A stretch of DNA of 64,000 bases from Candidatus Fermentibacterota bacterium (GTDB taxonomy: Bacteria; Fermentibacterota; Fermentibacteria; Fermentibacterales; JCC-6): positions 65,395 through 129,394 of the forward strand of contig JAUWSQ010000002.1 of the NCBI GenBank assembly GCA_030609965.1, written 5' to 3'. The notes beneath the pieces are model-generated. The model was given only the letters and a program-made list of their open reading frames with translations. It ran no database searches and had not been told where the DNA came from. Below are positions 2,668 to 25,841 of the stretch, piece by piece. The position numbers and the translations under genes are program-made. Position 1 is the first letter of the stretch. Every line of letters starts with the position of its first letter.

Positions 2668-4065
2668 ATGAACAGATCGCTTTCTGTAATGATCGTTGAT
2701 GATGAGAAGCCTATGCTGGAATGGCTTTCCATACTTCTGGAAGAGCATGGTTACGAAGTCTCCTGCTTTTCAACTGGAGAACAGGCTGTAGAAGCCGGCT
2801 TGAAATCCATACCGGATATACTTGTTGCTGATGTAAAAATGCCGGGAATAAGCGGTTTCGATGTTCTGACGCAGCTCCGGGAGAATTCTCCCGGTCTTAT
2901 CGGCATAATAATGACAGCCTTTTCAAGTGTGGACTCGGCAGTTAAGGCTATGCGAAAAGGAGCAACGGACTATCTTGTTAAACCCTTTGAAGTCGATCAG
3001 CTTCTGATCGCGATAGAGAAAGCCCTCTCCGAAAGGGATCTTAAAAGGGAGAACCTGGAACTCAGGAAAAGAGTCCGGTCAAAATACTCTATCGAGGAGA
3101 TTATAGGAAAATCCAGACCCATTGTTGAACTGCTTGAAAAAGTAAGGATAGTCGCGGACAAGAACAGCACAATAATTATCACTGGTGAAAGCGGTACAGG
3201 CAAGGAACTCATCGCAAGGGCTATTCACAGCATTGGTTCCAGATCTGACAAGCCCTTCTTCGGTGTCAGTTGCGGAAGTTTTTCCCGCAGTCTTCTCGAA
3301 AGTGAACTCTTCGGTCATCTTAAAGGATCCTTCACAGGCGCGTACAAGGACAAGGAAGGCCTCCTTGTAGCAGCAAGAGGAGGTACCTTCTTTCTGGATG
3401 AAATAGGCGAGCTTGACAGGGAGCTTCAGGTTAAACTGCTCAGAGCACTTCAGGAGCGTCAGGTACTTCCTGTCGGCGGAACCAGAAATGTCCCATTCGA
3501 TGCCAGGATCATAGCTGCGACCAATGCCGATCTTGCTGAAATGGTAAAGACCGATGATTTCAGAGCGGACCTCTATTACAGGCTGAACGTTATTCCTCTC
3601 CATGTTCCCGCCCTCCGGGAAAGAAGATCCGATATTCCCTTTCTTCTGGATAAATTCCTTCAGGACTATTCCGGAGAAACAGGCGATCAACTGAAAACGA
3701 TTACACCTGAAGCAAGAGTAATATTGTCGGATTACAGCTGGCCTGGAAATGTACGTGAGCTTGAGAACGTGGTTGAACGTCTTTGTGTGATGACACTTGG
3801 TGAGGAAATTGCAGTTGATGACATACCGGATTTCATCAGGTACCCAGGTGAAGCGGAACATGTGTCTGCTGGTTCCGGGATCATAACTGAACAGTCTTCC
3901 AGGAAGAACCCCACTCTGGATGAGATAGATAAAGCTTACACACTGTACGTGCTTGAACACCAGGCAAGAGGACAGAAACGCCTTGCTGCCAAGATCCTTG
4001 GTATTAACGAAAGTACCCTTTACAGAAAGCTGGAAAAATACGCGAGGGAAATGGATGATTCATGA
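2668..4065 (+). CDS. pilR: Sigma-54-dependent response regulator, PilR/NtrC family
   Basis: REC domain, AAA+ sigma-54 interaction domain (GESGTGKE, GSFTGA variant of GAFTGA, FLDEIGEL) and C-terminal Fis-type HTH (LGINESTLYRKLEKY). Start moved from the ORF-track 2635 to ATG 2668 (MNRSLSVMIVDD), right after the pilS stop. Confidence 0.9.
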   Translation: MNRSLSVMIVDDEKPMLEWLSILLEEHGYEVSCFSTGEQAVEAGLKSIPDILVADVKMPGISGFDVLTQLRENSPGLIGIIMTAFSSVDSAVKAMRKGATDYLVKPFEVDQLLIAIEKALSERDLKRENLELRKRVRSKYSIEEIIGKSRPIVELLEKVRIVADKNSTIIITGESGTGKELIARAIHSIGSRSDKPFFGVSCGSFSRSLLESELFGHLKGSFTGAYKDKEGLLVAARGGTFFLDEIGELDRELQVKLLRALQERQVLPVGGTRNVPFDARIIAATNADLAEMVKTDDFRADLYYRLNVIPLHVPALRERRSDIPFLLDKFLQDYSGETGDQLKTITPEARVILSDYSWPGNVRELENVVERLCVMTLGEEIAVDDIPDFIRYPGEAEHVSAGSGIITEQSSRKNPTLDEIDKAYTLYVLEHQARGQKRLAAKILGINESTLYRKLEKYAREMDDS

Positions 4066-23996: not shown

Positions 23997-25841
23997 ATGC
24001 AGTTGCGGATACAATCTCCTGTTGCTGTTGCCGCGTGTCGAAAGGATATTTTGAACAGGATTTTTGAGTTTCTCTGGATAATAGTCCGCTTAACAGTATT
24101 CTGGTTAGCAGTTTACGGTTTTGGTGATATCGTTCGACATTACATTAAAAAGCTCGGCTGCGAATCACCTGTTGAGTTTGCGGGTATTGCAGGCCTGCTT
24201 GCTTTTTCGATTCCTTTAAGCCTCATGGGAGTATTCAGCAGGCCAGTACTAACGGCATTTCTTCTGATCGGCGCATTAATCAAAATAGTAACATCAATCC
24301 GGTCTAAACATGAGCGTATGCGCTTCAAGTTCTCCCGATTACATGTGGTGATACTTCTTATTCTTGCAGGTTTCATTCTATTATCAAATACAATGAGAGC
24401 GTCTGAACCACAATCAAATCCCGACGCACTGGTAACATATGCAGTTCAGCCTGATCGATGGCTGTCGTCCGGCAGGATATTCTATATTGAGGAAAGTATA
24501 TTCTCTGGATTGCCATCGGTTGGTGAAGTACTTGCCGCGTGGCCGGCTTCGCTTTCGCAATCAAGAACTGATCAGCTATCCCTTCTGCAGGTATTCCAGA
24601 TGAGTATGCTTCTGTTATCTGCCTATGCAGCATGGAGGATCCTTGGCAGAGGTAAAAAAGGTTTACTGATAACAGTCATTGCCTGCATGGTCACATCCAT
24701 GCTTGCAGGATGGGCTTCACTGGCGAAAATAGAGATGACAGTTCTGTATTTTTCGACGGTTGCCATATGCCTGCTTTACAAAGGATACATCGGTAAAGAT
24801 GGGAAGTTCGATCCAGTTCCCTTTCTGGCCATGGGATTGGCCCTGAGCACCAAGCTTACAGCACACATACTGCTTCCATCCTTTCTGCTCATAACTTTCG
24901 CCATCCCGCAATACAGAAGACTGAAGACAATTCTTGTATGGGGCGCGATTGTATTGCTGATACCGCTTTCATTTGCTGTGAGAACGATTCTGCACACCGG
25001 AGCACCTTTCTATCCGCTTTCAATTTCATTTCTCATGGCTGATGAGGATCATACGATTCCAGAGGTTCCACGGATTACTGAACTGGCTCTGGAGAATGCA
25101 GCGCCGAATGATCAACTGGTTAATACAGAGCCGGAACCATTATTCGTAAATATTTCTGAATTGATCACTTCCTGGAGTTTACCGGCATTGATCTTTCTGA
25201 TGGGCATGATTTCTCTGGCCATGCGGCGGAAATTATCCAGCGCCTTGCTGCCGATGGCTGCTGTGCTCCTTTACTGTCTTTTAGCATCAGTTGCATTCAA
25301 TCCTCTCAGATGGGGCGCGAAATATGCATTTCTTATGTCACCTTTTATGGCGGCAGTTGGAACGAGATGGACAGAAGAACTGAACTTCCCTCGAATATCA
25401 TTCTATGCGTTCCTGATCATTGTGGTGCTTACATCGTCACTTGCACCTCGGTTCGAGTACGTAAGAGCCTTTCCTGGAATGTCGTCATCACTGGATTTCA
25501 GACCTCCGAACATTGTAATGGTTAAAGCGCTGCATGACTGGTGTAATGAAAATCTTCCCGCGGGATCCACACTTCTATCATTATGGAATAGGGAGAGATA
25601 TTTCTCGGATCATGTGGTTATTGTGCTGGAAAATCATCCTCTTGGCAGGCGTCTGTTCCTGGTTGATAATCTTGAAGATGAAATGGAACTGCTTCAAATG
25701 ATGAATATTGACTATGTATATTTCCAGACTTCGGATCCTATGCCTGGAGACCTTGAAAGCTCTATTGAGCTGCTGCAATCCGACAGGCTTGAGTATGTTA
25801 CCGAGGTGTCGGAATATACTTTATGCAGAGTACTTTATTGA
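23997..25841 (+). CDS. Polytopic membrane protein, GT-C-like (predicted); paralog of 6040-7917
   Basis: 614 aa, full-length similarity to the 6040-7917 product (see that entry). Confidence 0.5.
   Translation: MQLRIQSPVAVAACRKDILNRIFEFLWIIVRLTVFWLAVYGFGDIVRHYIKKLGCESPVEFAGIAGLLAFSIPLSLMGVFSRPVLTAFLLIGALIKIVTSIRSKHERMRFKFSRLHVVILLILAGFILLSNTMRASEPQSNPDALVTYAVQPDRWLSSGRIFYIEESIFSGLPSVGEVLAAWPASLSQSRTDQLSLLQVFQMSMLLLSAYAAWRILGRGKKGLLITVIACMVTSMLAGWASLAKIEMTVLYFSTVAICLLYKGYIGKDGKFDPVPFLAMGLALSTKLTAHILLPSFLLITFAIPQYRRLKTILVWGAIVLLIPLSFAVRTILHTGAPFYPLSISFLMADEDHTIPEVPRITELALENAAPNDQLVNTEPEPLFVNISELITSWSLPALIFLMGMISLAMRRKLSSALLPMAAVLLYCLLASVAFNPLRWGAKYAFLMSPFMAAVGTRWTEELNFPRISFYAFLIIVVLTSSLAPRFEYVRAFPGMSSSLDFRPPNIVMVKALHDWCNENLPAGSTLLSLWNRERYFSDHVVIVLENHPLGRRLFLVDNLEDEMELLQMMNIDYVYFQTSDPMPGDLESSIELLQSDRLEYVTEVSEYTLCRVLY

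Follow-up and report, generated by a model that had tools for sequence, protein, structure and literature searches.

In a 64,000-nucleotide stretch of DNA from a Candidatus (Ca.) Fermentibacterota bacterium (the window, in whose coordinates all positions are given), two type IV pilin genes stand among genes for five large polytopic membrane proteins (M1 to M5), a conserved repeat protein (S304) and a block of sugar-processing genes. We propose, with a probability of roughly 65%, that this region is a major-pilin locus that has accreted a dedicated system for periplasmic pilin glycosylation from polyprenyl-phosphate-linked sugars. The pairing of a pilin gene with a membrane glycosyltransferase of the GT-C class is found again throughout the phylum and in certain other bacteria, and is probably a little-studied route by which pili receive sugars; gene context is what points to the pilin as acceptor, and to the sugar and the donor chemistry. 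A preliminary description, made from the letters of the window, had read the region as a multi-enzyme pilin glycosylation island. Comparison of genomes supports that reading, with three corrections: the membrane proteins belong to three families, the sugar genes are a variable cassette, and there is no Arn-like pathway.

Pilin genes and their membrane-protein neighbours across the Fermentibacterota

Genes were called from a listing of open reading frames (ORFs) together with Pfam and NCBIfam scans of the window, and every gene named in the preliminary description was found where it had been placed. Close homologs, at 70-83% identity, come from Ca. Aegiribacteria and Fermentibacteria metagenome-assembled genomes (MAGs); judging by its sequences, the host is a member of the Fermentibacterota (Ca. 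Aegiribacteria). After pilR the gene order is M1, pilin1, convergent M2, S304, a minus-strand array reaching to 21607, pilin2, convergent M4, and M5. The large membrane protein described as convergent with each pilin is thus there in both cases (M2 and M4), as are the three further polytopic proteins (M1, M3 and M5), and a hydropathy scan finds 7-10 hydrophobic segments in each of the five. The start of M1 overlaps the pilR stop by 4 bp. The window's pilC is 83-97% identical to the full-length 402-amino-acid (aa) pilC of relatives, and pilS-pilR synteny is present in all related loci. The core features are as follows.

1-956, plus strand: pilC, 3' part, truncated by the window start (T2SSF, E 1.5e-50)
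1011-2666, plus strand: pilS-type sensor histidine kinase (HisKA and HATPase_c)
2635-4065, plus strand: pilR-type sigma-54 activator, a response regulator (Response_reg, Sigma54_activat at E 6e-64, HTH_8)
4062-5402, plus strand: M1, TMEM260-like (DUF2723) GT-C without a TPR tail, by homology
5525-5539, plus strand: sigma-54 -24/-12 element of pilin1, TGGCAAAGATATTGC, from sequence
5606-5974, plus strand: pilin1, type IVa-like major pilin candidate, 122 aa (N_methyl motif)
6000-6027, no strand assigned: GC-rich hairpin and T-run between convergent pilin1 and M2, GGCGGG-tctaaaag-CCCGCC-GTTTCTTT, by direct reading
6040-7917, minus strand: M2, GT-C of a DUF8201/PMT-related family with a C-terminal alpha/beta domain, by AlphaFold2 (AF2) and Foldseek
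7918-8832, minus strand: S304, conserved three-repeat protein of 304 aa, abutting M2 upstream on the same strand, by family profile
12745-14508, minus strand: M3, GT-C of the M2/M5 family with the invariant motif SRDAMIHH, by profile homology
21856-21870, plus strand: sigma-54 -24/-12 element of pilin2, TGGCAAGTATTATGC, from sequence
21925-22284, plus strand: pilin2, 119 aa (N_methyl motif)
22289-23857, minus strand: M4, GT-C nearest in fold to ALG12, ALG6 and ArnT, with a short helical C-terminus (~60 residues), by AF2 and Foldseek
23997-25841, plus strand: M5, paralog of M2 and GT-C of the same family, by homology

A synteny scan with one genome per species yielded 43 loci with an M2/M5-family gene, all of them in Fermentibacterota (loci are cited below by number, as L001 and so on); 37 had enough flanking sequence to be informative. 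A convergent pilin gene lies within 2.5 kb downstream of the M2/M5-type gene in 33 of these 37, mostly at less than 150 bp, and the adjacency spans Aegiribacteria, Sabulitectum and Fermentibacter, down to 28% identity. The four exceptions are M5-type copies beside M4 or obg, a copy in L043 with no pilin in reach, and a second M2-type copy in L026. This arrangement is far beyond chance. Conservation of the adjacency in relatives, which the preliminary description had put forward as a check on its reading, is therefore found, and the M3 branch carries it into other taxa as well.

The usual layout is pilC-pilS-pilR-(M1)-pilin(s)-M2-S304, and in Aegiribacteria and Fermentibacter loci M1 separates pilR from the pilin. 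Fermentibacter-type genomes have an M5-like gene at the pilin-convergent position and M4 behind it, and in L021 and L023 M4 comes directly 3' of the pilin and shares its strand. The most telling relative (L004/L019) shows the order pilR-M1-pilin1-M2-S304-pilin2-M4-M5-obg with no sugar genes at all. We regard M1, pilin, M2 with S304, pilin, M4 and M5 as the conserved core.

Both pilins carry the prepilin motif G-1/F+1/E+5, and they are paralogous, as first described (54% identity, E 8e-45); the nearest NCBIfam model to pilin1 is Myxococcus PilA, at a sub-threshold score. The sequence GGGAGG lies 7 nucleotides (nt) 5' of the pilin2 ATG at 21925. The sigma-54 label given to these genes also holds: a -24/-12 element precedes both of them and 40 of 49 related pilin genes (in 38 of the 40 at 64-93 nt from the codons of the GFTLIE motif), against a background of 2% of 260-bp windows. 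A pattern scan for sigma-70 promoters and terminators gave chance-level counts (61 vs 53.8 and 15 vs 14.1, respectively) and missed the hairpin at 6000-6027, and an Rfam search of window positions 1-30 kb returned no RNA families. Unlike pilin1 and M2 with their intervening hairpin, pilin2 and M4 have stop codons only 4 bp apart (22284-22289), which leaves no space for a terminator, so that their convergent transcripts would overlap.

An alignment of 50 related pilins shows C36, C77-P78, C98, H107-G108, G113 and W117 to be invariant and S116 nearly so. Positions 79-106 are variable and partly Ser/Thr-rich (85-97 are often Ser/Thr), in a stretch that spans Cys77-Pro78 to Cys98. Candidate glycosylation sites, on this alignment, are the 79-106 stretch and Ser116, next to Trp117 near the C-terminus. 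The three invariant cysteines (36, 77 and 98 of the mature protein) make an odd number and are accompanied by an invariant histidine; together these could indicate a metal site or an intermolecular bond beyond the usual disulfide loop.

S304 was described as a triple-repeat protein, and comparison of its family profile with itself bears this out with three internal repeats (97.3% probability, E 2.4e-11, and 94.7%, E 5.7e-8). It has no match in Pfam or NCBIfam. Aegiribacteria and more distant loci have orthologs of ~300 aa 5' of M2, and the signal-peptide-like N-termini of these orthologs suggest that S304 is probably exported. In one Fermentibacteria MAG (L024, 6663-7982) the gene 5' of the M2-like gene is not S304-like; it encodes a 439-aa protein with the N-terminal sequence LIDTLRADHLGCYGY, presumably a motif of the sulfatase/alkaline-phosphatase superfamily, which it resembles. 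That protein could carry out a different modification of the pilin or envelope.

Three GT-C families and their relatives in other taxa

The five membrane proteins, presented at first as a single set of GT-C paralogs, are not one: only M2 and M5 are close, M3 joins them at profile level, and M1 and M4 stand apart. They constitute three GT-C families (M1; M2, M3 and M5; M4) and are not of O-antigen ligase or polymerase type. Homology places M1, M3 and M5 in the GT-C class, and predicted fold places M2 and M4 there. The Wzy/WaaL-type alternative that had been raised is not what was found, since Wzy_C has no match in any of M1-M5 at E values up to 10 and the folds are GT-C. TPR models of Pfam likewise match none of the five.

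M1 scores 20.7 bits against PF11028, under the cut-off of 24.2, but 27 of 30 aligned M1 homologs match this family at E<=0.001 (best E 1.2e-33). Its only sequence match in the PDB is human TMEM260 (9rql; E 0.0021), over the EDGGEF...HPPG loop, and the M1 family profile matches the same structure at E 8e-92.

For M2 and M4, AF2 models were made from deep alignments and compared with the PDB by Foldseek. The M2 model has a predicted local distance difference score (pLDDT) of 87.8 and a predicted template-modelling score (pTM) of 0.90, and its 30 best PDB matches are without exception GT-C enzymes: STT3, DPY19, ArnT, ALG9, PglB, AftD, AftA, Emb and Pmt (STT3 at E 1.1e-4; template-modelling (TM) scores of 0.41-0.51 for the best-aligned matches). 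The M4 model (pLDDT 90.9, pTM 0.93) matches ALG12 (E 2.5e-5, TM 0.52/0.55), ALG6, ArnT, EmbB, ALG9, Pmt4 and AftB; in sequence M4 weakly matches the NCBIfam LA_3751/LA_3752 putative glycosyltransferase family. PDB searches with the M2 and M4 sequences, and with the M2, M3 and M4 family profiles, gave nothing meaningful; it was the comparison of folds alone that told something.

M5 is 31% identical to M2 over 609 aa (E 5e-84) and has a weak PMT_2 match. Profile-profile comparison joins M3 to the M2 family with 99.4% probability (E 2.5e-21, 550 columns). M2, M3 and M5 themselves fall under the PMT_2 cut-off; M3 homologs at E 3e-25 carry the Pfams PMT and PMT_2, above the curated cut-offs in L122 and L072.

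Conserved acidic residues in a periplasmic loop had also been named as a check, and invariant acidic residues follow a hydrophobic helix in every family examined (M1, M2, M3 and M4). The M1 family has invariant D35, H50, P51 and G53, with E38 conserved in more than 90%; the M2 family invariant D139, D149, E162 and E173; the M3 family invariant R105, D106, H110 and H111; and the M4 family invariant D60, with D52, D71 and K72 conserved in more than 90%. These acidic residues are predicted to sit at the expected first extracytoplasmic loop of GT-C enzymes, the periplasmic side being assigned from hydropathy and positive-inside residues. The M2 family has a further invariant segment, PxWWGAKY at 429-436, which is without Asp and lies ahead of two more membrane helices.

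Two ideas suggested by the fold matches were discarded. An oligosaccharyltransferase of STT3/PglB/AglB type is rejected because the WWDxG motif is absent, and STT3, although the top fold match, reaches a TM score of only 0.42-0.48. C-mannosylation of the invariant C-terminal Trp of the pilin, an idea taken from the DPY19 match, was dropped since nothing specific supports it.

Scanning metagenomes with the M3-family alignment brought up at least 445 relatives. In the close ones (39-72% identity; L057-L063) a GT2 gene and the M3-type gene lie directly 5' of pilM-pilO-pilQ. Seen more closely, in Ca. Fermentibacter daniensis (L009, 8919-18147) and in L057-L063 the M3-type GT-C and a divergent GT2 immediately precede pilM-pilN-pilO-(463 aa)-pilQ; because it stands upstream of pilM-pilQ, this Fermentibacter-type pair has its link with pilus assembly genes and not with the pilin gene.

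Of the distant relatives (22-29% identity), only Ca. Electrothrix and Electronema, the cable bacteria, have names; the Electrothrix GT-C proteins are M3 homologs at E 3e-25. Many of these distant loci run on a single strand as pilS-pilR-pilin(s)-[VKOR-DsbA]-GT-C-GT2. One (L122) has the order pilR, pilin, a TPR membrane protein, VKOR-DsbA, a PMT/PMT_2 GT-C, GT2, methyltransferase and LPG_synthase_TM, and similar clusters occur in L072, L076, L084, L109, L112 and L125. The GT2 of L122 is 56% identical to that of the window, and the GT2s of the distant pilin loci, which lie 3' of the M3-like GT-C genes, are 51-56% identical to it. Type IV pilus genes occur in 23, and GT2 genes in 29, of the 45 M3-family loci of at least 6 kb. 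In the Ca. Electrothrix gigas paper a pilA cluster is drawn that includes a 'phospholipid carrier-dependent glycosyltransferase' and is shared by nearly all Electrothrix species; its authors labelled the genes only 'sugar-modifying enzymes' and did not propose that the pilin is glycosylated (PMC10580974).

In many of the pilin-linked loci outside the Fermentibacterota a VKOR-DsbA fusion lies directly 5' of the PMT-type GT-C: L054 (Ca. Electrothrix communis, 3-4175), where a pilC gene follows, L122 (4586-7385), L074, L083, L109, L112, L113, L116, L119, L126, L128 and L134. This gene order suggests that disulfide formation and glycosylation make up a joint module of pilin maturation. Beside the pilin in L122 (2476-4569) and L072 (3415-5571) is a protein of ~700 aa, with an N-terminus of ~460 aa that has no Pfam match and a C-terminal TPR region. 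We considered the L122 protein as an M1 homolog and rejected this, the match to the M1 profile being confined to the TPR region and not extending to the membrane part; such a protein might be a TfpW- or TMTC-like GT-C.

The donor cassette, a proposed pathway and its rivals

The minus-strand sugar array (8892-21607) is tightly packed into 12.7 kb and has a GC content of 0.38-0.42, against 0.46-0.50 in its flanks. In addition to M3 it holds the following genes.

8892-9725, minus strand: methyltransferase (Pfam/NCBIfam)
9729-10811, minus strand: ATP-grasp ligase (Pfam/NCBIfam)
10844-11533, minus strand: YfcE-like metallophosphoesterase (Pfam/NCBIfam)
11523-12428, minus strand: epimerase/dehydratase of the short-chain dehydrogenase/reductase (SDR) class (Pfam/NCBIfam)
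14505-15425, minus strand: MprF-TM-like (LPG_synthase_TM/UPF0104) membrane protein, candidate flippase (PF03706)
15486-16892, minus strand: weakly GT-B/GT4-like protein, 468 aa (Glyco_trans_1_2, E 0.015)
16926-18011, minus strand: DegT/PseC-like aminotransferase (DegT, E 1.5e-116)
18004-18957, minus strand: 4,6-dehydratase-like SDR (NCBIfam)
19128-20081, minus strand: GT2 with two C-terminal hydrophobic helices, candidate polyprenyl-phosphate sugar synthase (Glycos_transf_2, E 8e-23)
20068-20655, minus strand: hexapeptide N-acetyltransferase (Pfam/NCBIfam)
20657-21607, minus strand: GFO/IDH/MocA oxidoreductase (Pfam/NCBIfam)

This array is a variable donor cassette inserted in the conserved core and not an integral part of it, because L004/L019 has the core without it, relatives carry differing cassettes, and the GC content dips. 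The set of methyltransferase, ATP-grasp, metallophosphoesterase and SDR occurs together in L001 and L010 and is absent from L014 and L018; the oxidoreductase-hexapeptide-GT2 trio is kept in L008, L037 and L040; and M3, the MprF-like protein and GT2, all in the same minus-strand array here, are found together in L008, L055 and L122 too. The cassette of L001 and L008 includes HisH/HisF and an unannotated 375-aa gene, a set that we take to be of the amidotransferase type by its likeness to HisH/HisF-like O-antigen genes, and that of L006 has dTDP-deoxysugar and methyltransferase genes.

Several of the first labels given to these genes could be sharpened. The MprF-flippase-domain label stands, with PF03706 matched at E 1.8e-11 (44.5 bits, cut-off 33.4) by a protein with eight hydrophobic segments; the stop of this gene overlaps the M3 start by 4 bp, and the gene recurs beside M2- and M3-type genes. 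The GT2 has a GtrB/ArnC/DPMS-like architecture (hydrophobic segments at 247-265 and 287-305); its best NCBIfam models, AglJ, PpgS and ArnC, are all far under the equivalog cut-offs. The SDR at 18004-18957 had been called ArnA-C-like and fits an NDP-hexose 4,6-dehydratase better (RmlB 163 bits, LegB 139 bits, ArnA 77 bits). The best NCBIfam models for this SDR and for DegT are RmlB/LegB and PseC/LegC, all under their family cut-offs. The WbpD- and WbpB-like labels of the acetyltransferase and the oxidoreductase hold as far as the domain family, with no closer assignment. The gene called GT-B is present, with orthologs in L008, L014, L018 and L042, but matches to the WcaI and GPMC GT4 models (E 0.01-0.07) point only weakly to that class. 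It is 468 aa long, as opposed to 352 aa in the L008 ortholog, with a direct duplication (FHGTSSFFHGTSSFF) and a hydrophobic insert, and may carry an insertion or be decaying.

Amino-sugar donors are plausible because of the DegT aminotransferase, the hexapeptide acetyltransferase and the WbpB-like oxidoreductase. An Arn (L-Ara4N lipid A) pathway was rejected: the SDR fits 4,6-dehydratases, DegT fits PseC/LegC over ArnB, and there is no ArnE/F. No GtrA, SMR or MATE protein was found, nor any small ORF in the 316-bp gap at 12429-12744; the Pfam and NCBIfam scans of the island gave no phosphoglycosyltransferase, Wzx, Wzy or WaaL; and the annotated genes of 4-26 kb include none for D-arabinofuranose (D-Araf) synthesis (DPPR synthase, DprE1/DprE2, GtrA-like).

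Obg, dprA and housekeeping genes follow M5. A 313-aa Ser/Pro-rich ORF antisense to obg (25835-26776, minus strand), with no family matches, is most likely spurious. In a 176-aa protein (28774-29304, plus strand) an HU-type DNA-binding domain (1-89) is followed by a fused CBM48 glycogen-binding module (104-157), an unusual combination also present in L004 (1747-2277), a relative whose M2 is 43% identical. Another T2SSE-family ATPase, of 413 aa, lies among housekeeping genes ~11 kb past the pilin locus (37118-38359, plus strand).

In the pathway that we propose, PilS/PilR and sigma-54 would drive both pilin genes, as their promoter elements indicate. The cytoplasmic enzymes of the low-GC cassette (the 4,6-dehydratase-like SDR, DegT, the GFO oxidoreductase, the hexapeptide acetyltransferase, and a decoration set of ATP-grasp, methyltransferase and YfcE-like proteins) would, going by their domain families, produce at least one nucleotide-activated N-acetylated amino/deoxy sugar. 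The GtrB/ArnC-type GT2 would load the sugar onto polyprenyl phosphate, the MprF-TM-like protein would flip the lipid-linked sugar to the periplasmic face, and the GT-C enzymes would transfer it to Ser/Thr of the inner-membrane prepilin or pilin before assembly. That there are several GT-Cs is most likely explained by differences in site or in donor, or by consecutive action. By analogy, M1, M2, M3 and M5 resemble enzymes with protein acceptors (TMEM260 and PMT) and M4 the glycan-extending ALG enzymes; that M4 extends the glycan is speculative. The donor cassette is exchanged from strain to strain, in keeping with a surface structure that faces pressure from phages or grazers.

Several points weigh against glycosylation of the pilin, and some of them favor a different acceptor: lipopolysaccharide (LPS)/O-antigen, lipid A/core, or proteins in general periplasmic O-glycosylation, with the pilin adjacency owed to a recombination hot spot. 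The choice of acceptor and donor chemistry rests on gene context, the flippase role of the MprF-TM-like protein is that of a candidate, and the GT2, SDR and DegT matches all lie under equivalog cut-offs and so name no sugar. Lipid A, O-antigen, teichoic acids and arabinan also count among the substrates of GT-C enzymes, so that the fold names no acceptor, and enzymes with lipid or glycan acceptors (ArnT, Emb/Aft, ALG) are among the fold matches here. Variable genes are known to gather at pilin loci, so that part of the linkage could be hitch-hiking, and the low-GC mosaic of the cassette resembles O-antigen islands. M4 and M5 are kept next to obg without pilin2 in L037, L040 and L044, L053, a locus from outside the phylum, has an M4-like gene with no pilin near it (as far as seen, the pilin link of the M4 family is restricted to the phylum), and 22 of the 45 long M3-family loci have no type IV pilus gene within 6 kb. 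Yet a hot spot would have to account for a pilin adjacency that survives to 28% identity across the phylum, for its re-creation in other taxa in a different, same-strand order, for the overlap of M1 with the pilR stop codon, and for M3-type genes that lie by pilMNOPQ when they are away from the pilin. The window moreover lacks an O-antigen polymerase, ligase, flippase or phosphoglycosyltransferase, and for M1 (TMEM260) as for M2/M3/M5 (the PMT family) the nearest relatives of known function act on proteins. We therefore consider a non-pilin acceptor unlikely, at somewhat better than one chance in five.

Two other explanations were weighed. The island might make a secreted, capsular or pilus-associated exopolysaccharide, with the GT-Cs polymerising it extracytoplasmically in the manner of Emb/Aft. 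Several GT-Cs per locus are typical of arabinan or mannan assembly, and Emb, AftA, AftB and AftD are among the fold matches; the locus, however, is without Wza/Wzc, an ABC transporter, a synthase, a primer phosphoglycosyltransferase or a chain-length regulator, and L004 keeps four GT-Cs with no sugar genes between its pilins, which makes a polysaccharide very improbable. The least probable of these readings, and one to which we give hardly any weight, is that the membrane proteins, on a degenerate GT-C scaffold, have no catalytic role and act like TfpY/TfpZ as accessory or assembly factors that would chaperone or stabilise the pilin in the membrane, beside unrelated sugar genes. S304 is a conserved partner without an enzymatic signature, and in Pseudomonas there are pilin accessory proteins whose genes adjoin pilA (PMC11841053). 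A scaffold of this kind would not be expected to hold invariant Asp/Glu/His in the predicted first periplasmic loop of all four families examined across wide divergence, and the recurrence of GT2 and a flippase-like gene with the GT-C genes is sensible only for an active lipid-linked-sugar pathway.

Glycosylation of the pilin from lipid-linked sugars thus remains the reading that we prefer. A broader form of it, on which we would bet at slightly under even odds, is that these loci represent a cross-phylum, unrecognised pathway of pilin O-glycosylation. In it, PMT-related (DUF8201) and TMEM260-like GT-Cs, as bacterial counterparts of the eukaryotic protein O-mannosyltransferases, would act on sigma-54-regulated type IVa pilins, with the donor made by a GT2 encoded in cis and flipped by an MprF-TM-like protein. 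In Fermentibacterota up to five GT-Cs plus S304 would give multi-site or extended glycans from a strain-variable cassette, and the same module would act on the abundant PilA of cable bacteria.

Pilin glycosylation controls pilus stability, phage susceptibility and surface behaviour, and to our knowledge few enzyme types are known to perform it (TfpO/PglL, TfpW and archaeal AglB). If our proposal is true, a widespread further route (pilin, PMT-type GT-C, GT2 and flippase) exists in an uncultured phylum common in anaerobic digesters, and also in other taxa of which cable bacteria are the only ones named; it would bear on the chemistry of the abundant PilA of cable bacteria. It would also supply first functions for DUF8201, for bacterial DUF2723/TMEM260-like proteins and for a UPF0104 'flippase-like' protein. 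The swappable donor cassette suggests strain-level variation in the pilus surface.

Comparison with known systems

We judge TfpW the functionally closest system. TfpW is a GT-C encoded beside pilA that glycosylates the pilin from lipid-linked D-Araf (10.1101/2020.04.19.049825). It shares with the present locus a GT-C membrane enzyme encoded next to the major pilin gene (in P. aeruginosa group IV, for pilin D-arabinofuranosylation) and periplasmic glycosylation of pilin Ser/Thr from a polyprenyl-phosphate monosaccharide; in some species donor genes and a small flippase lie near pilA-tfpW. Its described features nevertheless set it apart: TfpW is a single enzyme, encoded on the same strand 3' of pilA, with a large C-terminal TPR domain and the motifs DDX and YX6PFX7P, whereas here there are five GT-Cs of three other families, mostly convergent with the pilins, with a predicted alpha/beta C-terminal domain in M2, M3 and M5 and a short helical tail in M4. 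The TfpW-type position, immediately 3' of pilA on the same strand, is not that of M2 and M4 in the window, which are convergent to the pilins; that order is seen elsewhere, for M4 in L021 and L023 and for M3-like genes in distant taxa. The donor pathways differ too, with DPPR synthase and DprE1/E2 for TfpW and, here, a GT2 synthase and an MprF-like candidate flippase without D-Araf genes.

Periplasmic three-component systems run from a lipid-phosphate sugar synthase through a flippase to a GT-C transferase (PMC11127046). Examples are GtrA/GtrB/Gtr*, Citrobacter youngae ORF15/14/12 and CsbB/GtcA/YfhO. The window has corresponding parts in a candidate GT2 synthase that fits the GtrB architecture, a flippase candidate that overlaps the M3 start, and GT-Cs. 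The known systems decorate O-antigen, teichoic acids or other glycans, whereas the linked acceptor gene here is that of a pilin; the flippase candidate is of the MprF-TM/UPF0104 type and not GtrA/SMR or MATE, and several GT-Cs share one locus.

PMT and TMEM260 transfer a single sugar from polyprenyl- or dolichyl-phosphate to protein Ser/Thr across a membrane. The likeness lies in M1, whose sole PDB relative is TMEM260, and in distant relatives of M2/M3/M5 that score above the PMT_2 and PMT cut-offs. In contrast to TMEM260, M1 lacks a TPR domain and scores under the PF11028 cut-off. Mannose is probably not the sugar donated, given the amino/deoxy-sugar enzymes of the cassette, and a type IV pilin would serve as acceptor.

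TfpO/PilO and PglL also glycosylate pilins in the periplasm, and tfpO lies directly 3' of pilA, but these enzymes are Wzy_C/WaaL-like rather than GT-C and move preassembled oligosaccharides from undecaprenyl pyrophosphate. An O-oligosaccharyltransferase of this kind was rejected for the window, given no Wzy_C match, the GT-C fold, and no phosphoglycosyltransferase or Wzx.

The pilA cluster of Ca. Electrothrix/Electronema resembles the present one in combining pilA with a phospholipid carrier-dependent glycosyltransferase, a second glycosyltransferase, a methyltransferase and TPR proteins (PMC10580974). There, one or two GT-Cs lie on the same strand as pilA, whereas the Fermentibacterota locus stacks five, together with S304 and a swappable cassette. 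Precedents exist for pilin glycosylation by GT-C enzymes and for three-component donor supply; what is so far undescribed is this set of enzyme families, the number of GT-Cs, the S304 partner, the swappable cassette, and the recurrence of the arrangement in several taxa.

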